Below are positions 5,547 to 61,958 of a stretch of DNA of 64,000 bases, one piece after another; the first letter of the stretch is position 1; every line of letters starts with the position of its first letter. The notes below the pieces were generated by a model that ran no database searches, was not told the DNA's origin, and saw only the letters and a program-made list of their open reading frames with translations. Source of the DNA: Candidatus Eiseniibacteriota bacterium. Its GTDB lineage: Bacteria; Eisenbacteria; RBG-16-71-46; JACRLI01. The stretch lies in NCBI GenBank assembly GCA_016235265.1, contig JACRLI010000004.1:171485-235484 (forward strand). Reading direction: 5' to 3'. The position numbers and the translations under genes were made by a program.

Positions 5547-6527
5547 TCAGGGCCGCGCGGACGTCCTCCGGGAGGCCGCGATCAGATCCGCCTCCCGCGC
5601 GGGGGACAGGGCCGTGGCGGGCATTTCCCGGTCCCGCATCCAGTCGCCCGTATCCCTCGCGGTCACAGCGGGCTCGGTCAGCACCAGGCCCGCCGCGCAG
5701 GCCCGCTCGTTGCTCACGTCCATGAGGCCGCTGCGGGGACCCCTCTCCGGCCGGTACAGCGGGAGCTCCAGGAAGGACAAGTTCGCGGCCTCCAGGACCC
5801 GGGCGCCCACCCAGGCGACGCGTTCGGCGCCCAGGATGTCCACGAACTCCGCCCAGGTGATCCGGGGGCCCGACAGGTTGTAGGCCCCGCCCAGGCCACC
5901 CTCCACCACGGCCCGCGCAAACCGCGCCACGTCGCGCACATCCACGACCTGGACGTGGTCCCACCCGTCGCCGGGCGCGAGCATTTCCCCTCCCCGGGTG
6001 GCCCTCTTCACCCAGTAGGTGTAGCGGCCGCTGGGATCCAGCGGCCCCGCGACCACCTGCGGACGCAGGAGGGCGCACCTGCCGGGGAAGAACTCCTCGA
6101 CCAGGTTCTCACAGGTCACTTTGAGGCGTCCGTAGGATTCCTGGTCCAGCTCGGTCACGTCCTCGGCGGCCGGGGCCACGCGGGGATGGTTCTCGCGGAC
6201 CGGGCGGAGTTCCGGATCGCCGTAAACGGCGACCGCGCTGATGTAGACGTACCGGCCGACCCGCTCCCGCAGGGCCGTGGCGCTCGCCCGCACGTGCACC
6301 GCGGTGTACCCGCTGACGTCGATGCACGCGTCCCAGGAGCGGCCCGCCAGCCCCGCCAGCCCGGCGGGGCCCTGGTCGCGGTCCGCGCGGATGCGCTCCA
6401 CCCGCGGGGGCAGCTCATCCGGTGACTTCCCGCGGTTGAGCACGCTCACGCCATGCCCGGCCGCAAGCAGGGTCTCCACGATGTGCCGGCCGATGAATTG
6501 CGTGCCGCCAAGGACCAGGATGTTCAT
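5547..6527 (-). CDS. NAD-dependent epimerase/dehydratase (SDR family)
   Basis: The N-terminal Rossmann motif is MNILVLGGTQFIGRH. The length and overall pattern fit an extended SDR. The start overlaps the methyltransferase stop by 4 nt. Confidence 0.8.
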   Translation of the reverse strand: MNILVLGGTQFIGRHIVETLLAAGHGVSVLNRGKSPDELPPRVERIRADRDQGPAGLAGLAGRSWDACIDVSGYTAVHVRASATALRERVGRYVYISAVAVYGDPELRPVRENHPRVAPAAEDVTELDQESYGRLKVTCENLVEEFFPGRCALLRPQVVAGPLDPSGRYTYWVKRATRGGEMLAPGDGWDHVQVVDVRDVARFARAVVEGGLGGAYNLSGPRITWAEFVDILGAERVAWVGARVLEAANLSFLELPLYRPERGPRSGLMDVSNERACAAGLVLTEPAVTARDTGDWMRDREMPATALSPAREADLIAASRRTSARP

Positions 6528-7429
6528 GGGGAGACGGGCTGGGGCGGCAGCGGGCTCTTCGGATCCGGGGTCGGACCGGGGTCATAGCCCACCCACTCGA
6601 TGTCCGGCACGCCCCGAAAGCGCCGGGCCATCACCGCCAGGGCCTCGGGGTTGTTGTCCACGAGCAGGAAGCGGCGGCCGAGCTCCAGCGCGGCCGCGCC
6701 GGTGGTCCCGCTCCCGGCGAAGCAGTCCAGCACCAGCCCTCCCGGGCGGGAGGAGGCCTGGACCACGCGCCGCAGGATCCCCAGCGGCTTCTGCGTCGGA
6801 TAGCCGGTCTTCTCCGGGCCGTTGGTGGGCACGATGGTGTGCCACCAGGTGTCCGTCGGGAGCTTGCCGCGAGCGGCCTTCTCCGGGCCCACCAGGCCGG
6901 GTGCCATGTACGGGATGCGCTCGATCTCCTCCGCGTTGAAGACGTGCTGCGAAGGGTTCCGGGCATACAGCAGGATGTTGTCGTGCTTCGGCGGCCACCG
7001 GTGCCTGGGCCGGCCGCCGTAGTCGTACGCCCAGATGATCTCGTTGAGAAAACACTCGCGCCCAAAGATGGCGTCGAGGAGCACCTTGCAGTAGTGCACC
7101 TCGCGGTAGTCCAAGTGCAGGTACAGGGATCCGTGGGCCGCGAGGACCCGGTGCGCCTCCGCCAGGCGCGGCTCCAGGAAGGCCAGGTAGTCGTCGAACA
7201 GGTCGCTGAACCGTATCGTGCCCATGACGACACTCTGGTAGCGGCGGCCCTGGAATCCCGTGCGGTCGCCCTCCGCGGAGCGCACGGTCTTCAGTTGCTT
7301 GCGGGTCTGCACCTTCCCGGTATTGAACGGCGGGTCAATGTAGATCAGGTCCACGGAGCCCGCGGGAAGGCTGCGCAGGACGTCGAGGTTGTCCGCGAGG
7401 TGAATCGTGCCGGTCACATCGTGCTCCAT
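6524..7429 (-). CDS. site-specific DNA methyltransferase, beta-class N6-adenine/N4-cytosine type
   Basis: The catalytic motif IV (IYIDPPFNTG) comes before the AdoMet motif I (LDCFAGSGTTGAAA), which is the beta-class order. The start is ambiguous: ATG at 7429 or TTG at 7471. Confidence 0.85.
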   Translation of the reverse strand: MEHDVTGTIHLADNLDVLRSLPAGSVDLIYIDPPFNTGKVQTRKQLKTVRSAEGDRTGFQGRRYQSVVMGTIRFSDLFDDYLAFLEPRLAEAHRVLAAHGSLYLHLDYREVHYCKVLLDAIFGRECFLNEIIWAYDYGGRPRHRWPPKHDNILLYARNPSQHVFNAEEIERIPYMAPGLVGPEKAARGKLPTDTWWHTIVPTNGPEKTGYPTQKPLGILRRVVQASSRPGGLVLDCFAGSGTTGAAALELGRRFLLVDNNPEALAVMARRFRGVPDIEWVGYDPGPTPDPKSPLPPQPVSP

Positions 7430-7489: not shown

Positions 7490-8059
7490 CTATGCCGCAG
7501 GCCTGAGCTCCCAATGATCGGAGCCCTGGACAACTTGGAGCCTGGGCTGTCGAGATCTGGCAATCCCGTCGGCAAGCGTCCAGAAGTTCTTGTCCAGGGC
7601 ATTCAATCGCTTCATGTGACTGGGAGCAAGGTGGTTCTCGCCAGGCTTCCCTATCAGGTTCATGAACGCACCAAGCAAGATCCGCCGGTAGACGATCTCT
7701 GATGCGTACTCCAGGGGCTGTTTGGGACTGGCCTCTCGTTCGGCGATGGTGGCCCGCCGCGGGATTCTGAGTCGCAGAGCCAGGCCCGCCTGTGTGAGCC
7801 GGCAAGCAGAACGAAGGAACCTGAGTTCGGCACCGAACAGGTAGCGGGATTCACCCAGCAGATCCAGGGCAATCACCTGAAGAAGCTGCCATTCCTTGAA
7901 GATCGTGACCCTTGCAGCCTTGCAGTCGGGGCACTTCGACACAGTGACGCCGCCGCACAAATACACGTTGGTCAGCCCGGCTCCCAGGTAGCGATACTCG
8001 CCGGGCTTCCGGACTTCGAGTCTGTCACTACCGCAGGCAGGGCATCTCTTCGTGCTCAT
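7490..8059 (-). CDS. MqsA-like antitoxin (YgiT-type zinc ribbon plus XRE-type HTH, with a C-terminal extension)
   Basis: From M55 of the ORF the sequence is MSTKRCPACGS...CPDCK (CxxC...CxxC), followed by an HTH-like LRFLRSACRLTQAGLALRL. The start overlaps the stop of the upstream small ORF (ATGA). Confidence 0.65.
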   Translation of the reverse strand: MSTKRCPACGSDRLEVRKPGEYRYLGAGLTNVYLCGGVTVSKCPDCKAARVTIFKEWQLLQVIALDLLGESRYLFGAELRFLRSACRLTQAGLALRLRIPRRATIAEREASPKQPLEYASEIVYRRILLGAFMNLIGKPGENHLAPSHMKRLNALDKNFWTLADGIARSRQPRLQVVQGSDHWELRPAA

Positions 8060-50435: not shown

Positions 50436-51641
50436 TCAGCGCAGGATCTTCGCGGGCCTCGGGCACTCGGGCGCCAGCGCGCCGATCACCCCGCACGGCT
50501 CGCGGTCGGCGGGACCGCCGGGCCGCGGGTGAAAATTGCCGTTGAGGTAGTTGCAGAACCCGGGGTCTTCCTCGATCTGCTGGCCCGCGCCGGGGATTTC
50601 GCCCGGCGGCGAGGAGCCCGGGATCTCGGTGGGATTGGCGGCGTAGTAGAAATTCTCGGGTGTGTTGTGCCAGGCCAGGTTGCAGCGCAGATCCGGGTAG
50701 GCCGCGCGCCCGGCCACCAGGCCGCCGCCCTGGTTGGCGCTGATGTTCTCGGCGAGCAGGTTGCGCACCACCAGCGGGCGGCAGTTCAGGAAGAACAGCC
50801 CGCCGCCCCAGTGCTCCACCCGGTTGGCCACGATGGTGTTGCCGCGCACTTCCACGCGCGTGAGCGTGCCGATTTCCGCCCCGCCGCCCCACCCGGCGTC
50901 GTTGCGGTCCATGACGTTGGCCTCGAGCAGGCCCTGGGTGCGGAAGTCCAGGAACACCCCCCCGCCGTGGTAGTCGGCGTGGTTGCGCAGGAAGCGGTTG
51001 CCGCGGATGGTCACCAGCGAGCAGGCGCGGGCGTAGAGGCCGCCGCCGTTGCTGGCGGAATTCCCCTCGAAGGTGTTGCCCTCCAGCACCGCGGGCGACT
51101 CGAACAGCGCCACCGCCCCGCCCACCCCCTTGCCGATCTCCAGCACGTTGTCCACGAAGATGTTGTCCCGCACCCGCACCGCCGCCCGGAAGGCCAGCAG
51201 CCCGCCACCGCCCTCGCGCGGCGTGTCCGGCAGGTACGTGCCCCGGCCGCGGGTGACGGTGAATCCCTCCACGCGGGTGAGGCTGTCGGCGTCGCGGACC
51301 AGGATCACGGAGCCGCGGTAGTCGCCCAGGATCCGGGTGGACAGGGCGCCGTCGCGGCTGCGCAAGGTGACGCCCGAAGGCAGGACCAGCCGTTCCTCGT
51401 AGTCACCCGGCAGGACCAGCACGGTGTCGCCGGGCTGCACCCGGTCCAGCGCCCTCTGGATGGACCGGCTGCCGGCCACCGGGGCCACCTCGACCGTGGC
51501 CGCCGGCGCCGGGGACGGGACCGGCCACGCACCCGTGACCAGCGCGCTCAGCGCGCCGGCGAAGATCGCGGCACGGAAACGGATGCACGGGCGGGTATTG
51601 GGCGCGGCCGGAGGGGTGGTCGGACGGTGGCGGTACGACAT
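50436..51641 (-). CDS. right-handed parallel beta-helix repeat protein (pectate-lyase/NosD-like fold), secreted
   Basis: A signal-like N-terminus is followed by repeated G-x-N-x-h-x-x-N turns (e.g. RDNIFVDN, EGNTFEGN, RGNRFLRN, RGNTIVAN). Confidence 0.75.
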   Translation of the reverse strand: MSYRHRPTTPPAAPNTRPCIRFRAAIFAGALSALVTGAWPVPSPAPAATVEVAPVAGSRSIQRALDRVQPGDTVLVLPGDYEERLVLPSGVTLRSRDGALSTRILGDYRGSVILVRDADSLTRVEGFTVTRGRGTYLPDTPREGGGGLLAFRAAVRVRDNIFVDNVLEIGKGVGGAVALFESPAVLEGNTFEGNSASNGGGLYARACSLVTIRGNRFLRNHADYHGGGVFLDFRTQGLLEANVMDRNDAGWGGGAEIGTLTRVEVRGNTIVANRVEHWGGGLFFLNCRPLVVRNLLAENISANQGGGLVAGRAAYPDLRCNLAWHNTPENFYYAANPTEIPGSSPPGEIPGAGQQIEEDPGFCNYLNGNFHPRPGGPADREPCGVIGALAPECPRPAKILR

Positions 51642-51769
51642 GGTGGGATACTAGCACGCCCGGGGAGTGGACTCGTAGGGTTGGGCTCAAACCTCTCCCG
51701 GGGCGCGGGCGTCCCGGGAGAGATCTCCGGGGACGCCCCTCACCCCAGGGCCGCCCTGCAGCTGCGGGC

Positions 51770-52729
51770 CTATCCGCGGAGCCAGGTGAAGCGCCGGGTG
51801 ATGCGGGTGCCCTGGGCCTCCAGGCGATAGAAGTACGTTCCGGAGGCGGCCCGGACGCCGCTGGCGCCGCGGCCGTCCCAGGAGACGGTGTGGCGACCGG
51901 CGTCCTGTGGGCCGTCCACCAGCACCCGGACCAGCTGGCCCGAGGCGTCGAGCAGTGCCATGCGCACCGTCCCCCGTGCCGCCAGCTCGTAGGCCAGTTG
52001 CACCCGCCCACGCGCCGGGTTGGGCCGGGCGAACAGCAGCCGGGTCGCGATCGCACCGCCGCCTTCCACCCCCACGGCCGCGCCGACCGTCACCGTGCCG
52101 ACCATGCTGAACGAGTGGACGGCGCAGAAGTACTGCTGCGCCCCGCCGACCATCATGGGGATCGCGGCGCTGGCATTGTGGCCCAGGAAACCGGTGTCCC
52201 ACGTGCCGTTCTCGATCCCGCCGCTGCCGCTGGTGCTGGTGTGGGTGAACGTCCCGCTGTTGAACCACACCACCGTGTCCCCCAGCGTGACGTTCAGGGT
52301 GGCCGGATTGAACGAGAAGTCCTTGATCGTGACCACTGCGCGCGTGACGCGGATGATGCCCCGCGTGGCGGGGTTGAGCGAATCGAAGTAGCGGAACGGG
52401 CCCATCAGCGTGAAGGCGCGCTGGTAGGTCGCGGCGGGGGCCAGCGTGGGCGAGGCGAACTTGCCGTCGGGAGTGGGTGAGATGCCACTGGTGACATTGT
52501 GGCTCGAGGCCGACTGGTTCACCCAGCGGATGGTGTCCCCCAGGGTGGCGAAGACCGTCGAAGGTGAGTACTCGAATCCGCCGCCCACGTCCACGATGTT
52601 GACCACCCGCACCGTGGCGCGGGCCGGCGTGGCGAGCGGCAGGGCGGCGGCGAGGAGCAGCAGGGCCAGCGCCGCGCGGCGGCCGGCGGACGGGGTGGCG
52701 GGAGTCGTCGCGGTGACAATGCGCTGCAT
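51770..52729 (-). CDS. tandem cupredoxin-domain protein with C-terminal FlgD-Ig/T9SS-like sorting domain
   Basis: I set the start at M53 (MQRIVTATT..., signal peptide). The second domain has type-1 copper ligands (FTHTSTSG...YFCAVHSFSM). The C-terminus reads SGTYFYRLEAQGTRITRRFTWLR. Confidence 0.75.
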   Translation of the reverse strand: MQRIVTATTPATPSAGRRAALALLLLAAALPLATPARATVRVVNIVDVGGGFEYSPSTVFATLGDTIRWVNQSASSHNVTSGISPTPDGKFASPTLAPAATYQRAFTLMGPFRYFDSLNPATRGIIRVTRAVVTIKDFSFNPATLNVTLGDTVVWFNSGTFTHTSTSGSGGIENGTWDTGFLGHNASAAIPMMVGGAQQYFCAVHSFSMVGTVTVGAAVGVEGGGAIATRLLFARPNPARGRVQLAYELAARGTVRMALLDASGQLVRVLVDGPQDAGRHTVSWDGRGASGVRAASGTYFYRLEAQGTRITRRFTWLRG

Positions 52730-53022
52730 GGCTGGGCACCTCCGCTGTGGTTCGCGGGCATCGGACCAGCGAAACGACGGACTGGGAGGGAGCCGTCGGC
52801 GCACCTGGGCGAGGCCGGACTTCGGGACGGTTTCCGACGGCGCGGGCCTGGGGGCGCGACGCGGGCGGATCTTCGCCGGGTCCATCGCGGACGGGTCGGT
52901 GCCGGGACGGCAGGGAGGCGAAGCAGCGGCTACTGTTTGGATGCGGACGGAGGCGGGTCGGTGCCTATCGGGAACCGGATCTCACGCAGGTGACCCGGGC
53001 CCCGGCAGCCACCGCACGGTGG

Positions 53023-53589
53023 CTAGAACCGGCGCTCGGCGCGGCCCAGCAGCATGGTGGGCGAGACGATCCCGCCGGAGAGCACCAGCTTGAGCCCCTC
53101 TTCCACCGAGATGTCGAGCGGGTGCACCTGGTCCACGGGCAGCAGGATGAACATGCCCGAAGTGGGGTTGGGGGGATGCGGGATATAGACGTTCACCAGG
53201 GGATCCACTTCGCCGTCCGGCCGGCGATAGTCAATGCGATTGGTGACGAAACCGACCGAGTACATCCCCAGCCGCGGGTACTCCACCAGCAGCACCTCGC
53301 GGAAGATGATGGACTTGTTGGCCCCCGAGAATGCCTCCATGAGCTGCTTGGCCGCGTGGTAGATGGTCTTCACCACGGGGATGGACAGCAGCAGGCTCTC
53401 CACGCCGCGCAGCAGGAACTTGCCCACCAGGTTCCGCGCCAGCAGGCCCAGCAGGAAGATGGCGACGATGGCCGAGATGAAGCCCAGCCCGTAGATCAGG
53501 GCCACGCCCTGCAGGAAGATGTTGCGGATGCCGCCCCAGAAGCCGGGGTGCTTCTCCTCGTCGGAGAGCTTCTTCTCGATGTCGCTCAC
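53023..53589 (-). CDS. DUF502 family membrane protein
   Basis: It has two TM helices followed by IPVVKTIYHAAKQL...REVLLVEYPRLGMYSVGFVT...PNPTSGMFILLP, which is the DUF502 pattern. Confidence 0.85.
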   Translation of the reverse strand: MSDIEKKLSDEEKHPGFWGGIRNIFLQGVALIYGLGFISAIVAIFLLGLLARNLVGKFLLRGVESLLLSIPVVKTIYHAAKQLMEAFSGANKSIIFREVLLVEYPRLGMYSVGFVTNRIDYRRPDGEVDPLVNVYIPHPPNPTSGMFILLPVDQVHPLDISVEEGLKLVLSGGIVSPTMLLGRAERRF

Positions 53590-53682
53590 GCGCGGAGCTT
53601 ACAGAGGGCCGGGCGCGTTGTCCAGAAGCGTTGAGGCACGGGCGCGGGCCGGTGGGACCGCGGGCACGCTGGGGGCGCGCGG

Positions 53683-53799
53683 CGGGGGCGTGCGCCGGGA
53701 GCGCGCGCCGGGAGCGCGCGCCGGGCGCGCGCGGCGGGAGCGCGCGGCGGGAGCGCGCGGCGGGAGCGTGCGCCGGGAGCGCGCGGCGGGAGCGCGCGG
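53683..53799. repeat. 13-bp tandem repeat, 9 contiguous copies (consensus cgggagcgcgcgg)
   Basis: I counted unit by unit: 53683, 53696, 53709, 53722, 53735, 53748, 53761, 53774 and 53787. It is intergenic, between the RHS stop and the DUF502 start. Confidence 0.9.
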
Positions 53800-53816
53800 C
53801 GCCACCGGCCACCCGC

Positions 53817-56800
53817 TCAATGCGCCTCCGCGGCATCGTCCCACACCGGCCCGAAGAGGCCATCCAGGACCGACGTGTTCGCGTATCCGGGCACCACCCG
53901 CGAGAGGATGTCGTCCGAGAGGTCGGACAGTTCCGGCCGCAACCCGCCCCAGGTGAGCAGCGCCATCACCCCCACCGGCGGCGTGGCCAGTCCCGCCTGC
54001 ACCGCCAGCACGCCCAGGAGGTCCAGGGTGGTCTCCCCCAGCAGGACGCTCTCCGAGGCCAGGCGCGCGTTCTCCACCTGAACCGGGGTCAGGCCTCGCG
54101 CGTTCTCGAGGGCCATCTGGACGCGAATGCCGGCCACCAGCTGGTGGCCGATCATGGCGCGGTCCAGCGTGCGCGTCGCGGGCACCTTGGTCACGGCCCC
54201 GCGCACCACGGCCCGGGTCACCACCGGGCACACCCGGCCCAGTCCGGCGACCACGGAGAGGGTCGCGTCCTTTCCCGGGAACGTGAGCAATCCGTCGTGG
54301 ATCGAGCGCGCAGCACGGGTGACGGCCAGGTAGGCCTGGTAGAGCTTGCGGCCCTGCTCGCCCGCCCGGTCCCCGCCCACGGTCTTCAGCAGGCGGATGG
54401 CCAGGAGCAGCTTGTCCGGCACGCCGATGGTGCCGCGCACGATCACCGGGGGCAGGATGTAGCGCGGCGCCAGCCCGGCGGGCGCGTCCACCGGGGAGCC
54501 GGCCAGGCCCTCGGGGTCGGCGTAGGTGAGCGGATCGCCGAAGGCGTAGCCGTACGGCGGGGCGCCGGAGTCCCGGAGCGGATCCGGTGAGACGAAGCGC
54601 GCGGTGCCCGGGTCATAGAAGCGGTTCACCAGGTAACACCAGCCGGTCTCCGGATCCTGCTCCGCCCCCAGGAAGCCCAGCGTGGGGCGATCCGCGCCCT
54701 CGAAACGCGACAGCTCGCCGTAGGGCAGGAACTCCTGCTGGAAGCGGACCGCCCCGTCTTCGTCCACGCCCAGGCGCACGGAACCCAGCGCGTCGCAGAG
54801 ATAGGCGACGAAGGCGCCGTCGCGCTCGACGGTGCCGAGCAGCCGGGCCCCCGCGCGCACGTACTCGCGGAGCACGCGGCCCGAGGAATCGGCCTCCGCC
54901 AGCAGCGTGCCATCCTCGTCGCGCAGCTGGAACGTGGTCACGCCGCCCACGCGACGGCGGGTGCGCCAGCCGCGCGCGTCGTATCCATAGACGGCCGAGT
55001 CGGTGACGTCGGCGGCCCGCCCGGCGACCGTCACCAGCCGCCCGGCGGACGACCAGGCGAGCGTGAGGGCGCCGAGGGTGTCCGAGCCCACCAGGCGGGT
55101 GCGTTCGGCCAGCGCGCCGCCGGCGTCATAGGCGAATTCTTCGCGTCCGTGCGGCGCCCGGCGCACGCGGGAGAGGCGCGGCCCGTCCAGGTCGAAGGCC
55201 GCCGATTCGAGGTCACTGCCCACCGAGTCCAGCTCCCCGCCGGGGGCGTGGCGGTAGGTGACGGCGGGAGAGCCCGGTTCGCTGGAGAAGCGCACCGAGG
55301 CGAGACGCCCCGCCGGATCGCGCGCGAAGTCCCAGCGCACTCCCCCGGCGGCGGCACGCGCGGCGCACCGTCCGTCCGGGTCGCGCTCGTGGAACTCCTG
55401 GAACAGGGTGCGCCCGCGCGACTGTCCCACCTGGGAGACCGGCGCACCGCCCGCGTCGCGCTCCCAGCGCTGCTCCAGCGCACCGGCACGCTGCGCGGCG
55501 ACGCGGCCCGCGGCGTCGCGGGTAAAGGCCGCCAGCTCCCGCCCGGAGCCGTGCTCCTCGAGCCGAGCCACGCGGCCAGTGGCGGGATCGTAGTAGTGGT
55601 TCACGCGCCGGCCGTCCGGGTAGATGATGGAGGTGACGCGGTCCAGGCGGTCGTATTCGAACTCCAGCGAAAGCGGACTGGCCACTCCCGCGAAGTGGCA
55701 GGTCTTGCGGACCACCCGGCCCCGGCCGTCGCAGTCGAGTTCCACCACATCCACGGCGCCTCGCTCGTCGCGTGTCTCCACCCGGGTGAGGGAGCCGGGC
55801 GAGGCGCTGCCGTCGTACGAGTAGCGGGCAGTCCAGCGGGAGTCTGCGGGCAGCGCGCCGGCGTCGGCCAGGGCCTGCGCGGAGGCCTCCGTGAGACCCG
55901 CGGAGGTGGCTTCCTCCAGCAGCCGGCCCAGCGCGTCGTAGCGCAGGCACGTCCAGCCGGCCCCGGCCGCGCCACGCTCGTCGCGGGTGAACACCGGGCG
56001 TCCGGCGAGGTCCCACACCGTCACGCGGCGTGAACCGTCGGGGTTCTCGACCAGCAGGCGGTGGCCCGCGAGGTCGTGGTGAAACCGGGTGACGTGCCCG
56101 CCGGGTGCGTGCCACGCGGTGACCCGGCCCGCGGCGTCGTATTCGTAGTACCGGGTCTCGAAGGGAACCGATGCGCCGGCGGCGTACTCCGCGGCGGCCA
56201 GCAGCAGCCCGCGCGCATCCCGGGCGCGCAGCGAGGAGACTCCGCCGGGGTGCCGGGCGATCTCCACGGCGCAGAACCCCGGCGTGCCGCCCGGCCGGCC
56301 CAGGCCGAGAACCTGGAGATCCGGGACGGTGCGGTGCTCGACCCGGGTGGTGCCGGCCGGCCCCGCCTCGGCCGTGGGGCGCCCCAGCTCATCGTGGGTG
56401 TAGGTCACGCCGGCAGCTCCAGCCCTCCCCGCCTGCACCAGGCGTCCGAACGCGTCGTACGCGTACTCCATGGCGGCGCCAGACTCCCCGGCGCGGCGCA
56501 GGCTGCGCGGGCGGCCCAGGCCGTCGAGATGACACACCGCCAGCAGGCTCTCCAGCATGGCCGGATACAGCGCCGCGTAGTCGGTGGCATACCCCGCACC
56601 CGACGTCCGGGTGAGCACCCGCGACGGCCACACCGTGAGGTCGTAGGGCGGCAGCAGCGCCCCGCGCGGCGCGACCGGCGACCTGGGAGTCGGCGGCGGA
56701 GGGCCGGTCATCACGTCGCCGGGCAGCGCGCGGGTGCGCTCGCGGCCTTCCGCGTCGTAGCCGTGCGAGGTGAGGTGCCCCGCGCCGTCGGCCTCGCGCA

Positions 56801-59123
56801 ACAGCTCCCCTTCCCAGCCGAACGACTGGTAGGCCTGCAGGCTGCTCCCGGCGTCCGGGTGCAGCGTGATCATCACCGGGTAGGCGCCTCCGGGGCAGTC
56901 GGCAAAGGCGATGGTGTTGGGGATGGGCCGCGGGTCGTACTCGAACTCCACCGCCTCCCCCAGGGGGCCCGTTGCGCGCACCATCCGCGAGGGCTCGGTC
57001 TCGCTCCAGCTGAAGGTCCGCGTGGCCACGCGCGCGTCGTCGAGCCGGATGTGCTCGGCGGTGACGCGGCCGTAGGCGGGCTCCCGCTCGTACCAGGTCT
57101 CGGAGAGGAGCGCGCCCGTGACCGGGGCCAGCCGGCGCGCGCGCGCGGGGAGCTGCACCGAATAGCGCCCCGTTCCGCTCCAGGGCTGGTGCAGCCCGGG
57201 CGCGTCGAAGTACTCCACTTCGGTGCGCACCCCGGCCGCATCGGTGCATGCCGTCACCCGCGCGAGGCTGTCGTAGGTGGTGGTGGTGGTGTAGCCGCCC
57301 AGAGGCGCGCCCGCGGAGGTGGCCCGGAAGGTCTTCGAGGCCGGCAGCAGCGTGCCGGTGTAATGGTCGCCTTCGGGCACGGCGTCGTAGTCCATGGCCA
57401 GGGCGTGCGTCTCGCCGCAGGCGAGGCTCACCGAGGACTCCACCAGCCGGGCGGCCCAGCGGCTGCGGGTCGGGCCGCCGTGCGTCTGGGGCAGGCACGG
57501 GTACTTGCGAAAGGTGTGCACCATGCGGAACCCGGACGCCAACGCGGCGGCCCGCGCGGCCTCGCGCGACGCGACCGGGGCGCCCGGCCCGGGGGCCCCG
57601 GCGGGAAGGCTCGACGCGCCCGGCGCGCCTCCTGCCGGCGGGGACGGCGACAGCGGCGGCCCGCCGTCGTAGTCCACGTTCGTCAGGTACCGGTACGCGT
57701 CGGACTCGAACGGCGCGCCCACGGCGGGCCGCTCGCTCCAGTCGTAGGCGAGGGCGACCACCTGCACCGGGGCCTGCCCCGCAGCCTCGCGGATCTCCAC
57801 GCGCGAGACCATCGGCGCCAGGCACGGCGAACGCCCGGTGGCCCGCCACGCGCCGTCCTCCCCGCGCAGCGTGGGGTCCGGGCAGGCGGGACGCGTCGCC
57901 GGAAGCGGGACGAAGCCGTAGGTGGAACTGCCGCCTTCCGGGTAGTCCACGCCGGCAAGCCGCATGGCGCGCACGTCCGCGCTGTCCGAGCAGTTCGTGA
58001 GCCACGCCTCGGAGCGGTCGTCGGGCTCGTGGCGGAAGCCGGTCACCCGGCCGGTTCGGTCCGTGAAGTGGTCGAGATAGTACAGGTACGACCGGCGCGG
58101 CCGGGCCGCGCGGTCCGTGTACCACCGCTCCGAGAAGTCCAGCTCGTGCTGGCCGGGGCCGTAGCTGGTCACGACGGACACGTGGCACTCGCCGCCCTGG
58201 GGGGAGGCGTCCACGAGGATGTTCACGCTCCGTCCCGACTGGTCGGTGACCCGCACCGCCGTGGGATGCAGCCACGCGGAGCGTCCGCCGCCGGAGTCGG
58301 CGTACTCGTAACGGACGGTGAGCGAGCAGCCCGGCGTGGGCCCGGCCACCCGGGAGAGGCGGAATGCACGCGGGCCTTCGTTGTTGTTGTACGAGTAACC
58401 GGGCCAGCGCAGCGTGAGCGGCACTTCGTCGAAGGTCCACGTGCTGCCGTCCGGCTTCTTCACCGTGAGCGCGCGCCGGGTGTATGCGGGCGGGGCCAGC
58501 GAGGCGCGCCAGGCGAGTGAGGGATCGTTGGGCAGCATCGCGGGATTGCCGGAGGTGGGCAGGTTGCCGGGGTAGCCGAAGGCCACCGGGGCACCCTCCG
58601 AGGAGGCCAGTTCCACGTCGCCGTTGGATCCCCCGGACGCATACGCCTTGTCGCAGATGGAGTAGCCGGAGGTGCGCCAGCACCCGTCCACCACCAGGCC
58701 GGACGCGTCGCGATGCGGCTGGCCCGGCACCTCGCCGTTGAAGAGGTAGGGCGCCAGGTTGGCGGTCCACAGCACGTGGCCGTTCAGCCCCAGGCTCCAC
58801 TCTCCGAAGGCGGCCTCGGCATCCACGTAGGCCGAGGCGGCCGTGAAATCGAACCGGTGATGCGACACCGAGCCCGAGTAGTCGAGCGTGAGCACCACGT
58901 CCATGCCCCCCGGCTCCGGCCAGCGAAGCAGGGTGCGGTGATACGAGGGCGAGCCGGCGAACAGGCCCACGGACTCGCCGGGCGCGATCTCAACCTGGTC
59001 CTCCCCGAGGCGGCCGCCCAGGGCGTCCCGCGGATCGGGCGCATCCCCGGCCGCGGCCTGCGCCGGGCCCCAGATCGCGATGACAGCCGCCGCCAGGACC
59101 GCCCGAAGTGTGCGTCCCGTCAT
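53817..59123 (-). CDS. RHS/YD-repeat protein with RHS core and a 228-aa C-terminal domain of unknown type
   Basis: The protein has a signal peptide and many YD repeats (YDALGRL, YDAFGRLV, YEYDAAGRV...). The RHS core end reads NRFYDPGTARFVSPDPL...YGYAFGDPLTYADPEGL and is followed by a unique C-terminal region. Confidence 0.9.
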   Translation of the reverse strand: MTGRTLRAVLAAAVIAIWGPAQAAAGDAPDPRDALGGRLGEDQVEIAPGESVGLFAGSPSYHRTLLRWPEPGGMDVVLTLDYSGSVSHHRFDFTAASAYVDAEAAFGEWSLGLNGHVLWTANLAPYLFNGEVPGQPHRDASGLVVDGCWRTSGYSICDKAYASGGSNGDVELASSEGAPVAFGYPGNLPTSGNPAMLPNDPSLAWRASLAPPAYTRRALTVKKPDGSTWTFDEVPLTLRWPGYSYNNNEGPRAFRLSRVAGPTPGCSLTVRYEYADSGGGRSAWLHPTAVRVTDQSGRSVNILVDASPQGGECHVSVVTSYGPGQHELDFSERWYTDRAARPRRSYLYYLDHFTDRTGRVTGFRHEPDDRSEAWLTNCSDSADVRAMRLAGVDYPEGGSSTYGFVPLPATRPACPDPTLRGEDGAWRATGRSPCLAPMVSRVEIREAAGQAPVQVVALAYDWSERPAVGAPFESDAYRYLTNVDYDGGPPLSPSPPAGGAPGASSLPAGAPGPGAPVASREAARAAALASGFRMVHTFRKYPCLPQTHGGPTRSRWAARLVESSVSLACGETHALAMDYDAVPEGDHYTGTLLPASKTFRATSAGAPLGGYTTTTTYDSLARVTACTDAAGVRTEVEYFDAPGLHQPWSGTGRYSVQLPARARRLAPVTGALLSETWYEREPAYGRVTAEHIRLDDARVATRTFSWSETEPSRMVRATGPLGEAVEFEYDPRPIPNTIAFADCPGGAYPVMITLHPDAGSSLQAYQSFGWEGELLREADGAGHLTSHGYDAEGRERTRALPGDVMTGPPPPTPRSPVAPRGALLPPYDLTVWPSRVLTRTSGAGYATDYAALYPAMLESLLAVCHLDGLGRPRSLRRAGESGAAMEYAYDAFGRLVQAGRAGAAGVTYTHDELGRPTAEAGPAGTTRVEHRTVPDLQVLGLGRPGGTPGFCAVEIARHPGGVSSLRARDARGLLLAAAEYAAGASVPFETRYYEYDAAGRVTAWHAPGGHVTRFHHDLAGHRLLVENPDGSRRVTVWDLAGRPVFTRDERGAAGAGWTCLRYDALGRLLEEATSAGLTEASAQALADAGALPADSRWTARYSYDGSASPGSLTRVETRDERGAVDVVELDCDGRGRVVRKTCHFAGVASPLSLEFEYDRLDRVTSIIYPDGRRVNHYYDPATGRVARLEEHGSGRELAAFTRDAAGRVAAQRAGALEQRWERDAGGAPVSQVGQSRGRTLFQEFHERDPDGRCAARAAAGGVRWDFARDPAGRLASVRFSSEPGSPAVTYRHAPGGELDSVGSDLESAAFDLDGPRLSRVRRAPHGREEFAYDAGGALAERTRLVGSDTLGALTLAWSSAGRLVTVAGRAADVTDSAVYGYDARGWRTRRRVGGVTTFQLRDEDGTLLAEADSSGRVLREYVRAGARLLGTVERDGAFVAYLCDALGSVRLGVDEDGAVRFQQEFLPYGELSRFEGADRPTLGFLGAEQDPETGWCYLVNRFYDPGTARFVSPDPLRDSGAPPYGYAFGDPLTYADPEGLAGSPVDAPAGLAPRYILPPVIVRGTIGVPDKLLLAIRLLKTVGGDRAGEQGRKLYQAYLAVTRAARSIHDGLLTFPGKDATLSVVAGLGRVCPVVTRAVVRGAVTKVPATRTLDRAMIGHQLVAGIRVQMALENARGLTPVQVENARLASESVLLGETTLDLLGVLAVQAGLATPPVGVMALLTWGGLRPELSDLSDDILSRVVPGYANTSVLDGLFGPVWDDAAEAH

Positions 59124-59135
59124 CCTCTCCCCCCT

Positions 59136-60941
59136 TCAGTCCAGCCGGACCAGTTTGCCGATGGTCTCCGCGCTCTCCGATCCGGAACGCGCGGTGACGC
59201 GGTAGAAGTACACGCCGCGAGCCACAGGCTCACCGGTGGCGTCTCGCCCGTCCCAACCGAGGCGCTGGCGGCCCTCGCCGAAGTCGCCCTCCAGTCCGCG
59301 CACGCGTCGCCCCGCGACGGTGAACACGTCCACGCGCACGCGCGCGGACCGGGTGAGCGCGAACAGGAAGTCGGTGGCGGTGCGCACCGGGTTGGGGTAG
59401 TTGAAGACGTCCCGCAGGGCCAGCGGCAGCTCGACCTGGAATCGGGCCCCGCCCAGCGTGTCGCCGCGCGCGCAGGCGACGGCGGTATAGGTGCCGCTCT
59501 CGAGGCTCAACCGAAGCTGCACCGCGGAGCGGCCGGTGGCGCGGCCCACGGCCGCCGCACCGCGGAACACCCGGATTTCCACCTCCGGATCCCCGGAGAG
59601 CGCCGGTTCCTCCAGCGCCCCGCGCAGCTCCACCTCCCCACCGGTCAGCCGCAGCACCGGGCCGGCGGCGGAGCCTTCGGCGCCATTCACCCACAGGCGA
59701 AACCGGCCGGGCGGGAGCAACCCGGCCGGCGCGGAGGCGCTCACGCCGTGGTGCCGGTGACCCAGCTCGTGGCGGAACAGCCTCGGGCGGCCGGCCGAGT
59801 CGCTTCCAGCGTCGCTCACGAAACCCAGGGCGGTGCCCCCGTCGTGCGCGGCCCACGCCGCCCGCGTGCCCGGGGGCGCGGAGGCGGAACAGGCTGCCAG
59901 GTCGGTCTGCGAGAGGGAGCGCCCGGGTCGCGCGCCGTCGCCCCAGGTCCCAAGCGGCGAACCGTCGGCGGCCCACGCGGCCAGGCGGCCGTCGCGGCCC
60001 AGGGCGAGGATTCTCTGGCCGCGGTCCGCCAGCACGGCGACACCCCCCACCGGGCCCACGGGCGCGGTGGCCGGCCAGCCGGTCGCGGCGTGGAAGCCGC
60101 GCAGGCCGTCGCCGTCCCAGCGGCCCACGCCACCGGCCAGCGGCACCAGCAGGCAGGGCGCCGCGTCGGATCCCACCCGCGCGGGCTGTGGCGCGGCGGT
60201 GACGGGCACGGAAGTCTGCCGCTCCTGGTAGACCGGCATCGAGCCCGCGTAGAAGAGGCAGAACCACCGGCCGGCCGGGCCTTCCTCCACCCCACCCAGC
60301 ACATCCGGAACGCCGTCGCCGTCCGCGTCGGCGAGACGCAGGCGCGGCCGGCCGGTGAAGTTCGTCAGGGGAGAGATGGGCCGGCGGGCGGACGGATCGC
60401 CGGCCTCGGAGGCCAGCACGTCGCCGGACGTGCCGACCCACACCCAGTCGGGGCGACCGCGGCGCTCGATGTCGCCCAGCTCGGGGGTGTCGGCCATGTC
60501 GCGCGGACAGGGGATCTCTGCGAAGCCCGCCGCGGGCTGCCCGTCGAGGCGCCAGGCGCGCACGGTCTGCCCGCCGTCCCACGACTTCAGCAGGCAGACC
60601 ACCTCCGGCTGGCCATCGCCGTCGAGGTCCTGAAGCCGGGGAACGCCCGCGGGCCACGCGCCGGACGCCGCGACGGGCCAGCCCGGCGCGGGACGCCCGT
60701 ATTCGTCCCACAAGAAGATTCGGCCGCCGTCGTCGCGGCTCACCAGGCGGAAGCCGCCGCCCACCGCGCCCGCGGAGAGCGAGGCCGACGGCAGGGCCGC
60801 GGCGTCCACGGCGAGGAACACCGCCCACAGCAGCGCGGCGATGCCGGCGGCCAGGGCCAGGAACACGACCCAGCGGACCGTCGAGAAGAGCACGGCCCGG
60901 GCGCCCGAGTCCGGGCGGGACCGTTCGTGGCGTGCGCTCAT
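59136..60941 (-). CDS. FG-GAP/VCBS-repeat protein with C-terminal FlgD-Ig/T9SS-like sorting domain
   Basis: It has an N-terminal TM anchor and DxDxDG repeats (LQDLDGDGQPEVV, LADADGDGVPDVL). The C-terminus reads NYPNPVRTATDFLFAL...GVYFYRVTARSG...GKLVRLD. Confidence 0.75.
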   Translation of the reverse strand: MSARHERSRPDSGARAVLFSTVRWVVFLALAAGIAALLWAVFLAVDAAALPSASLSAGAVGGGFRLVSRDDGGRIFLWDEYGRPAPGWPVAASGAWPAGVPRLQDLDGDGQPEVVCLLKSWDGGQTVRAWRLDGQPAAGFAEIPCPRDMADTPELGDIERRGRPDWVWVGTSGDVLASEAGDPSARRPISPLTNFTGRPRLRLADADGDGVPDVLGGVEEGPAGRWFCLFYAGSMPVYQERQTSVPVTAAPQPARVGSDAAPCLLVPLAGGVGRWDGDGLRGFHAATGWPATAPVGPVGGVAVLADRGQRILALGRDGRLAAWAADGSPLGTWGDGARPGRSLSQTDLAACSASAPPGTRAAWAAHDGGTALGFVSDAGSDSAGRPRLFRHELGHRHHGVSASAPAGLLPPGRFRLWVNGAEGSAAGPVLRLTGGEVELRGALEEPALSGDPEVEIRVFRGAAAVGRATGRSAVQLRLSLESGTYTAVACARGDTLGGARFQVELPLALRDVFNYPNPVRTATDFLFALTRSARVRVDVFTVAGRRVRGLEGDFGEGRQRLGWDGRDATGEPVARGVYFYRVTARSGSESAETIGKLVRLD

Positions 60942-60950
60942 GTCGCCCCC

Positions 60951-61958
60951 CTACCAGCGCGCCACGGCGGACACGCGGTGCGTGCCGCCGAGGTCGTGAA
61001 AGGGAGCCACCGCGTAGTCCACGCGAAACGCGCCCACGCCCAGGCCGGCACCGAACGCCGCCCGGCCTTCCGAGGACCCGGCCCGCAGGAACAGCCGGTC
61101 GCGGTTCCGGAGCTCCACTCCGCCGCGCCACGGGCGCACCGGTCCGCCCGAGAGACCCGGGGCGGACGCCGCGCCGAACACGCCGCGCACCGCCAGGCCA
61201 GGGCCCAGGCGCACCTCGCGCGCCACCGCCAGCTCCAGGGACGGTGGGAGGCTCTCTCGCGCCCCGGAATCCCACGCCATGCGCGTGCTGGTGATGTCGC
61301 TGACGCGCGCCGCGACCTCCACGCCGGACACCTCGGCGCGCAACCCCACATCCAGCCCGAAGCCCTCCCCGCGACGGCCGGCGACCTCCTGGCGCAGGTA
61401 CTTGGCGCACACCCCGGCGCTCACGCGCGGGCCGAAGGCGCGCGCGTAGCCCACCATGAGCGCCCACTCGGCGTCGCTGCGCCACTCCACCCGCGAGGGA
61501 TCCACCTGCACCGGCTCGCCCGGTTCCCATCGGCCGTCGTCTTCGCCGGGATCGCGCGTGCCGGGCTGGCCGTCGGCACCGAAGTCGTCGAAGGCGAAGC
61601 GGTCGGTGACCGGGATGTCGTCCACGGACAGGCGCAGGATGCCCACTCCCAGCGCCTCGCCGGAGCCGTGCCCGATGGGGCCGGTCCAGGCCAGCGCATC
61701 GAAGCCGGCCGCCCCGGAGAAGTTCTCGGAGTGCATGATCTCCGCGGCGGCCGAAGGGGTGCGGGCCATCAGCGCCGGGTTCCAGCACAGCGCCGACGGG
61801 TCGTGGCCCACCGAGAGGAGCCCGCCGCCCAGCGCGTACGCGCGGGCGCCCAGCCCCAGGCGCAGGAACTCGGCCACACCGGAAGCGCCGGAAGCGGTGG
61901 GCGGGCCCGCCACGAGCAGCAGGCCGGCCAGGGCAGGAAACAGGGACGAGACGCGCAT
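60951..61958 (-). CDS. PorV/PorQ-like outer-membrane beta-barrel protein
   Basis: From the verified ATG at 61956-61958 the product is 335 aa with a signal peptide. The N-terminal signature is GVAEFLRLGLGARAYALGGGLLSVGHDPSALCWNPA. The C-terminal residue is aromatic (W). Confidence 0.55.
   Translation of the reverse strand: MRVSSLFPALAGLLLVAGPPTASGASGVAEFLRLGLGARAYALGGGLLSVGHDPSALCWNPALMARTPSAAAEIMHSENFSGAAGFDALAWTGPIGHGSGEALGVGILRLSVDDIPVTDRFAFDDFGADGQPGTRDPGEDDGRWEPGEPVQVDPSRVEWRSDAEWALMVGYARAFGPRVSAGVCAKYLRQEVAGRRGEGFGLDVGLRAEVSGVEVAARVSDITSTRMAWDSGARESLPPSLELAVAREVRLGPGLAVRGVFGAASAPGLSGGPVRPWRGGVELRNRDRLFLRAGSSEGRAAFGAGLGVGAFRVDYAVAPFHDLGGTHRVSAVARW

Follow-up and report, generated by a model that had tools for sequence, protein, structure and literature searches.

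The C-terminal tips of rearrangement hotspot (RHS) proteins are usually discussed as interchangeable weapons that are paired with immunity genes. Tc toxins carry an encapsulated cargo and have no immunity gene since the target is not the producer, and teneurins, which are eukaryotic type II membrane proteins with a YD shell, have a conserved C-terminal domain of toxin origin with a Tox-GHH fold positioned outside the shell. WapA is exported by the Sec pathway, and its polymorphic tRNase tip is encoded directly upstream of wapI, the immunity gene. Bacterial proteins described in the literature include WapA of Bacillus subtilis, named as an RHS protein (PMC10684867), and Tse5 (RhsP1) of Pseudomonas aeruginosa, in which an RHS shell protein ends in a helical toxin that forms pores (PMC9637101, PMC10684867), and the criteria listed for polymorphic toxins are variable tips, tips shared with other carriers, adjacent immunity genes and orphan cassettes (PMC4436062). 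Here, we describe an RHS/YD-shell gene in a 64,000-nucleotide stretch (the window) of contig JACRLI010000004.1 from a Candidatus Eiseniibacteriota bacterium, the product of which ends in a 228-residue tip. We tentatively read this tip as the shell-enclosed cargo of a chromosomal, vertically inherited protein and as a fixed, lineage-specific effector, this being the most probable of the explanations weighed below. The gene and its parts are:

53817..59123, minus strand: RHS/YD-shell protein gene with RHS repeats and core; a single open reading frame (ORF) of 1768 aa plus stop
59043..59123, minus strand: putative Sec-type signal peptide, aa 1-27 (MTGRTLRAVLAAAVIAIWGPAQAAAGD), read from the translation, without a lipobox Cys
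54504..54584, minus strand: C-terminal aspartyl autoprotease motif DPLR-X18-DPEGL (D1514, D1536), located by a regular expression on the translation at aa 1514-1539
53820..54503, minus strand: C-terminal tip and putative shell-enclosed cargo, aa 1541-1768 (228 residues)
53853..54176, minus strand: helical, conserved module spanning about residues 110-217 of the tip, delimited by pairwise identity and an AF2 model

The RHS repeats match PF05593 in Pfam (E=9.8e-26, four stretches) and TIGR01643 in NCBIfam (E=1.7e-18), and aa 1466-1540 match TIGR03696 (Rhs_assc_core, NCBIfam) with 65.8 bits against a cut-off of 32.5. The core ends at L1540, within the sequence PLTYADPEGL. When the whole protein was used as a phmmer query against the PDB, its shell was matched by the Rhs-family protein 8h8a, Tse15, Tse5, TcdB2-TccC3 and mosquito SGS1, and every one of these matches ends at query residue 1539-1549. 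The motif DPXGX18DPXG, with a cut four residues after the second Asp, has been documented for Tse5 (PMC10684867). In the window protein the first G of this motif is R (DPLR), and D1514 and D1536 and their spacing are kept in all six family members, the window protein and its five relatives. The sequence is thus consistent with an aspartyl autoprotease, and cleavage is predicted after L1540. Hydrophobic N-termini equivalent to the putative signal peptide are present in the RHS orthologs. Searches of Pfam and NCBIfam matched no type IX secretion system (T9SS) C-terminal sorting domain in the RHS protein, an exact-sequence look-up of the protein returned no record, and PADLOC gave no match for the RHS protein, its tip or the product of the neighboring DUF502 gene. 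The N-terminal ~450 residues (within aa 28-500; 57624..59042, minus strand) are the best-conserved part of the RHS protein, with 64-79% identity to the relatives P0002 and P0004 over aa 101-300 and with many conserved Cys and Trp residues. This region has no match in Pfam or NCBIfam and may be a plug or a partner-binding domain.

As in Tse5, the YD shell ends in an aspartyl autoprotease motif, with the two shells aligning at query residues 1443-1540, and in the window protein the release of a C-terminal fragment after the L of DPxGL and a helical cargo are likewise predicted. Unlike Tse5, the window protein has a putative Sec signal peptide, is not in a type VI secretion system (T6SS) context and has no immunity gene, and its tip, conserved from ortholog to ortholog, does not resemble Tse5-CT in sequence. 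The TcB-TcC cocoon of the Tc toxins (TcdB2-TccC3, PDB 4o9x / 6h6e) is also an RHS-type cocoon with the same autoprotease region, aligned at query residues 1441-1549, with only the TcC-like C-terminal shell region of the window protein matching a Tc component. A beta-propeller partner domain is present in Tc toxins, and the gene immediately preceding RHS in the window is for an FG-GAP protein, but this propeller is a T9SS-sorted protein in its own right rather than part of a TcB, and there is no TcA-like translocator among the ORFs scanned. TcC tips are, furthermore, hypervariable enzymes, whereas the window tip is conserved and predicted to be helical. The YD shell, the apparently vertically inherited and non-polymorphic C-terminal domain and the absence of an immunity partner are features shared with teneurins, and one relative, P0005, has a weak match to TEN_YD-shell (PF25023); the window protein differs in that its autoprotease residues are intact and its tip has no recognizable fold. 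As for WapA, export would be directed by a signal peptide rather than by a T6SS, but there is neither a polymorphic tRNase tip nor a downstream immunity gene in the window.

The tip is real coding sequence. In the RHS frame, the GC content of third codon positions (GC3) stays at 0.88-1.00 through the tip and falls off only past the stop codon, and Logan contigs, obtained independently from groundwater metagenomes, match positions 53900..54700 with zero differences. The GC1/2/3 values are 0.76/0.50/0.94 for the tip (73.2% GC overall) and 0.73/0.59/0.91 for the core (74.4%), and horizontal acquisition of the tip was rejected on the basis of this native composition. Four alternative-frame ORFs that extend over the tip and the spacer downstream (53599..54231, minus strand; 53631..54590, plus strand; 53231..53863, minus strand; 53519..53956, plus strand) were rejected as artefacts of high GC content. 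All four have translations rich in Arg, Pro, Gly and Ala, and the three that were tested have GC3 values of 0.62-0.79 with GC1 or GC2 of at least 0.80, as compared with a GC3 of 0.94 and a GC2 of 0.50 in the RHS frame.

For none of the six family members does the tip have a match in Pfam, NCBIfam or PADLOC even at E≤10, and a profile of the tip family matches nothing in the PDB at the same threshold. AF2 predicts an all-helical fold from the single sequence, with a predicted local distance difference test (pLDDT) score of 41, and from an alignment of the six sequences, a model with a mean pLDDT of 56.6 in which only residues 120-210 reach 67-84, again all helical. A Foldseek comparison of the model with the PDB and BFVD yielded no match at E≤0.001; the highest-ranked ones (E≥0.3, TM-score ~0.3) were to generic helical proteins and hairpins. 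An earlier note on this DNA, made from the sequence alone, had placed the tip at 53820..54503, directly after PLTYADPEGL, and had described it as helix-prone and of an unrecognized type. The boundaries agree exactly with the core end at L1540, the type is indeed unrecognized in these libraries and the helical character is predicted throughout, with acceptable confidence for residues 120-210 only. Mean pairwise identity is 0.15-0.31 over the first ~110 residues of the tip versus 0.35-0.60 over residues 121-220, which are conserved as well as the shell. The module has the motifs MI(A/G)H(E/Q)L(V/I)A, GLTP, LLxExTxD, RxxxSDLxD and VPGYxxTS, and the invariant positions (n=6) are H120, E157, T159, D161, R189, S193, D197, P205-G206-Y207 and S211. 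The tip therefore looks as though a disordered linker leads into a functional module under selection, and not like a swapped toxin cassette, and the conservation suggests purifying selection on residues 121-220.

An exhaustive phmmer (HMMER) search of 1.84 billion representative proteins (E≤1e-3) with the tip returned six matches, five of which (P0001 to P0005) are real relatives and all of these are C-termini located behind the same RHS core. The sixth, P0006 (1132 aa, repetitive, matched in 10 short stretches), was rejected as a low-complexity artefact. Two of the relatives are full-length, P0002 (1767 aa) and P0004 (1733 aa), and their colinearity with the window protein extends from the signal peptide through to the final residues. 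For the three pairs, the identities are:

Window versus P0002: core 57%, tip 40%
Window versus P0004: core 53%, tip 35%
P0002 versus P0004: core 50%, tip 33%

Evolution is faster in the tip than in the core, but the three pairs have the same rank order in both, and homology is unbroken throughout. In the 1.84 billion representatives, the tip was not found on any other delivery domain, and there was no modular replacement of tips between carriers, a criterion for polymorphic toxins (PMC4436062), all five relatives having a homologous tip. Word-index protein searches gave no matches for the tip alone, only P0005 for a profile of the tip and none for a profile of the N-terminal domain. To date, the family appears to be confined to Candidatus Eisenbacteria-like genomes from soil and groundwater. 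Because the same cargo is present on the same shell, with co-divergence of the two, a native composition and no adjacent immunity gene, the tip is best regarded as fixed and lineage-specific, rather than as a polymorphic arms-race module. The polymorphic-toxin logic implied in the earlier note, with the tip expected to turn up fused to other delivery domains, did not hold. The same note had also considered that the tip might be conserved in all orthologs as a structural, non-toxic domain, and here the data bear out the conservation and only the conservation.

Related loci were sought with an alignment of the N-terminal domain of the RHS protein, and four loci were read: the window, a metagenome contig from ENA (L001), contig DATKKS010000161.1 of a metagenome-assembled genome (MAG; L002) and a Candidatus Eisenbacteria MAG (L003). 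The order in all four is a gene for a PorV/PorQ-like barrel, a gene for an FG-GAP protein with a T9SS tail, the RHS gene and a DUF502 gene. Between the last two of these, the window has:

53671..53801, no strand: 13-bp tandem repeat (GGGAGCGCGCGGC x10.1), with a TRF score of 199 and 90% matches, the copy number being provisional as Logan contigs skip 53648..53900
53023..53589, minus strand: DUF502 membrane protein gene (PF04367, E=1e-29, 103 bits versus a cut-off of 23.8)

There is no credible immunity ORF in the RHS-DUF502 spacers of the four loci, which are 227 bp (window, 53590..53816), 62 bp (L001), about 130 bp (L002) and <100 bp (L003) in length. The window spacer is overlapped only by the long alternative-frame ORFs, which do not have the GC3 signature of coding sequence, and tblastn with the six tips and the RHS core against the 64-kb window and the other loci identified only the RHS genes themselves. 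The statements in the earlier note that the RHS stop codon is followed by the 13-bp repeat array and then by DUF502, that no immunity gene is present downstream and that there are no orphan tip or immunity cassettes were thus all confirmed, with the second of these extended to every locus that could be read. The repeat array is absent from the 62-bp spacer of L001, and in L002 the corresponding place is taken by another short GC-rich repeat (GGCCGCGAGC, about x2.5).

If the tip is an enclosed effector, the RHS protein would be exported by Sec, directed by the putative signal peptide, and would fold in the periplasm into a YD-repeat cocoon, by analogy with the RHS shells that have been solved. 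The autoprotease residues D1514 and D1536 would then direct a cut after L1540, leaving the tip as a separate polypeptide inside the shell. The cargo would have two parts, a fast-evolving linker of ~110 aa and a conserved bundle of three long helices, ~105 aa in length, in which the invariant H, E, T, D, R, S, D, PGY and S positions are located. The absence of an immunity gene would most likely reflect a producer that is not exposed, as the cargo would be enclosed from the moment of folding, and the targets would probably be non-kin, namely other microbes or eukaryotic grazers, as in the logic of the Tc toxins. Delivery would probably involve the PorV-like barrel and the T9SS-sorted FG-GAP propeller protein, as suggested by synteny, and our best guess is that the helical cargo acts by binding protein or by perturbing membranes.

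A less probable explanation is that the tip is not toxic but is a domain with a structural, regulatory or adhesive function in a teneurin-like surface protein, perhaps as a plug, stabilizer, ligand or signaling peptide, in which case an immunity gene is not needed because there is nothing toxic. Conservation of the tip in all orthologs and its co-divergence with the shell, the location of the RHS gene within a syntenic block of core genes and its evolution at the rate of these genes, and the weak, precomputed Pfam match of P0005 to TEN_YD-shell are all consistent with such a role. The immunity-free state of all four loci fits this role and a non-kin effector alike. There is also no toxin motif in any library searched, but many RHS tips are uncharacterized and this is, therefore, weak evidence. 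Against such a role are the autoprotease and the layout of the tip. Both Asp residues are intact in all members, which argues for a released cargo, a hallmark of bacterial RHS and Tc effectors, and the first ~110 tip residues behave like the disordered linker of encapsulated toxins. Since the autoprotease residues are retained in every member and the tip has the linker-plus-module layout of encapsulated effectors, the effector is slightly preferred. Several considerations weigh against this preference. A conserved, immunity-free cargo fits a non-toxic role equally well; the toxicity, cleavage and secretion of the tip are all predictions; the residues designated invariant are weakly supported by six sequences; and the AF2 model is mediocre, with its mean pLDDT of 56.6. 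Orthologs with a different tip could have been missed, as the locus scans added only three loci and two of the word-index searches were empty, and, as the RHS protein has no T9SS C-terminal domain, its link to the PorV-like and FG-GAP proteins is by gene order alone.

It is unlikely that the tip is a classical antibacterial toxin for which the immunity function has been displaced, either to the adjacent DUF502 protein, which would then protect the producer, or to a gene elsewhere in the genome. DUF502 does directly follow RHS in all four loci and is an inner-membrane-type protein, as are the immunity proteins of membrane-targeting toxins (Tsi5 for Tse5; PMC9637101, PMC10684867), and the window, at 64 kb, could exclude a distant immunity gene from view. 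The adjacency is, however, explained by the synteny of the whole block, which includes the cupredoxin, NosD-like and GNAT genes, and DUF502 (PF04367) is a general Pfam family for which a literature search found no link to immunity, one promising paper being concerned with DUF5020. With 58-68% identity between orthologs, as compared with 33-40% for the tip, DUF502 also evolves more slowly and without a signature of co-evolution; it is separated from RHS by 62-227 bp, and a conserved upstream motif in all four loci suggests that it has its own promoter; and a tip that is not polymorphic is unusual among toxins used in kin competition. DUF502 appears, therefore, to be a conserved neighbor and not demonstrably part of the RHS system. 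Similarly doubtful is a mode of action as a Tse5-like pore-forming or membrane-depolarizing toxin, a development of the hint in the earlier note that the hydrophobic stretches of the tip might indicate a membrane-active effector. The tip is predicted to be all-helical, the RHS tip Tse5-CT provides a precedent as it makes pores (PMC9637101, PMC10684867), and in all six members the helix LLGETTLDLLGVLAV, or its equivalent, is moderately hydrophobic (Eisenberg <H> about 0.5) with a low hydrophobic moment (about 0.1). The hydrophobic stretch quoted in the note is borderline, with a maximum Kyte-Doolittle 19-mer of 1.73 in the window protein; the maximum is 1.7-1.85 in three members, but the other three have no 19-mer of ≥1.6. 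The hydrophobic helix also contains an invariant E and an invariant D, and the stretch that follows it has charged residues instead in P0004 and P0005. A profile of the tip has no homology to Tse5-CT in the PDB, including the Tse5 entries 8cp6 and 9i9y (E≤10), while the Tse5 shell does match, and a small membrane immunity protein is lacking. In the fold search, membrane helical hairpins (V-ATPase c subunits) came out on top, but at E≥0.3 and a TM-score of about 0.3 these matches are not significant and no reading was built on them. A moderately hydrophobic helix in every member is thus what remains of the hint, which is weakened by its invariant acidic residues and by the lack of conservation in the next stretch; the pattern appears to fit a buried helix in a soluble bundle as well as it fits a pore former.

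Whichever role applies, the locus provides a counter-example from an uncultured phylum to tips as interchangeable weapons: the cargo is tied to a single shell, is transmitted along with the core genome and has no immunity gene in any locus seen. The architecture is known, the cargo family within it is new, and the whole is so far a well-delimited candidate. If toxic, the tip would represent a new effector family with about 105 conserved helical residues, no relative beyond this RHS family among the 1.84 billion representatives and targets that are probably non-kin. If not toxic, it would be a bacterial analogue of the situation in teneurins.

The genes that flank RHS and DUF502 in the window are:

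60951..61958, minus strand: PorV/PorQ-like outer-membrane beta-barrel gene, the first of the apparent operon (NCBIfam PorV2, E=2.4e-28; PorV_fam, E=4.8e-20; both matches below the curated cut-offs)
59136..60941, minus strand: gene for a beta-propeller-type protein with FG-GAP repeats (Pfam FG-GAP_3, E=2e-9; FlgD_ig is also matched) and, at its C-terminus, a T9SS sorting domain of type A
50436..52981, minus strand: genes for a two-domain cupredoxin with a T9SS type A tail and then a NosD-like beta-helix protein, both kept downstream of DUF502 in L003

The PorV-like protein presumably starts at the Met that precedes the signal-peptide-like sequence MRVSSLFPALAGLLLVAGPPTASGA, and its orthologs, at the same position in L001, L002 and L003, are 52-67% identical. 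The tail of the FG-GAP protein matches TIGR04183 (Por_Secre_tail) with 25.4 bits against a cut-off of 23, and FG-GAP orthologs are present in all four loci with 48-60% identity. Only 9 nt separate the PorV-like stop from the FG-GAP start and 12 nt separate the FG-GAP stop from the RHS start. A search for RNA runs that contain the locus found none. Beyond DUF502, the block in the window and in L003 also includes the cupredoxin with its T9SS tail, the NosD-like protein and a GNAT protein; in the window, the sorting domain downstream of DUF502 is on the product of 51770..52981. The cupredoxin, the NosD-like protein and the PorV-like gene together show that the organism uses a T9SS. Between loci, the neighboring genes are 48-68% identical and the RHS genes 47-54%, so that RHS diverges like the core genes that surround it.

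The conserved operon, with its PorV-like gene and T9SS-sorted propeller, offers a concrete hypothesis for how an RHS protein might reach the surface independently of a T6SS in bacteria of the Fibrobacteres-Chlorobi-Bacteroidetes (FCB) type. The furthest-reaching version, which we regard as improbable, is that the PorV-like barrel, the T9SS-anchored FG-GAP propeller and the Sec-exported RHS cocoon form an undescribed, lineage-specific surface delivery apparatus, a T9SS-linked counterpart of the Tc toxins that would present a fixed helical effector of new fold to non-kin cells (prey bacteria or protist grazers), or inject it into them. Such an apparatus, directed at non-kin, would explain why an immunity gene is absent from every member. 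A literature search found no described link between a T9SS and an RHS protein, and the ORFs scanned in the window include no T6SS, mobile-element or TcA-like genes. Otherwise, the window has housekeeping genes, for EF-P, HflX, an M24 peptidase, an AcrB pump, a helicase and a histidine kinase.

As compared with the orthologs in L001, L002 and L003, the DUF502 protein encoded in the window is 34 aa shorter, the first transmembrane helix being absent. Four groundwater runs have Logan contigs that all break from the window at exactly the same position (53496/53497), and their continuation past 53496 encodes VPLFFTYWV and PVYDQVLGRH, the segment that is absent from the window protein. Collapse of the assembly or a minority variant would probably account for the in-frame gap of about 102 bp. 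All four loci have, about 10-15 nt ahead of the DUF502 start, a conserved non-coding motif, TGGAC(A/T)-N13-15-CTCTG(T/A)(T/A)A, that may be the promoter of DUF502, although a scan with the sigma-70 consensus identified no promoter at this motif. Its positions are:

53595..53650, minus strand: window
7655..7712: L001
8540..8597: L002
15060..15110: L003

The RHS ortholog in L001 is split at about 6469..6664 into two overlapping frames of 1431 aa and 337 aa, either by a frameshift in this low-coverage metagenome contig or because it is a pseudogene. The L002 contig (9484 bp, 75.8% GC) is labeled Candidatus Saccharimonadales but shares its four-gene block with the window and with the Eisenbacteria MAG; mis-binning is almost certain.

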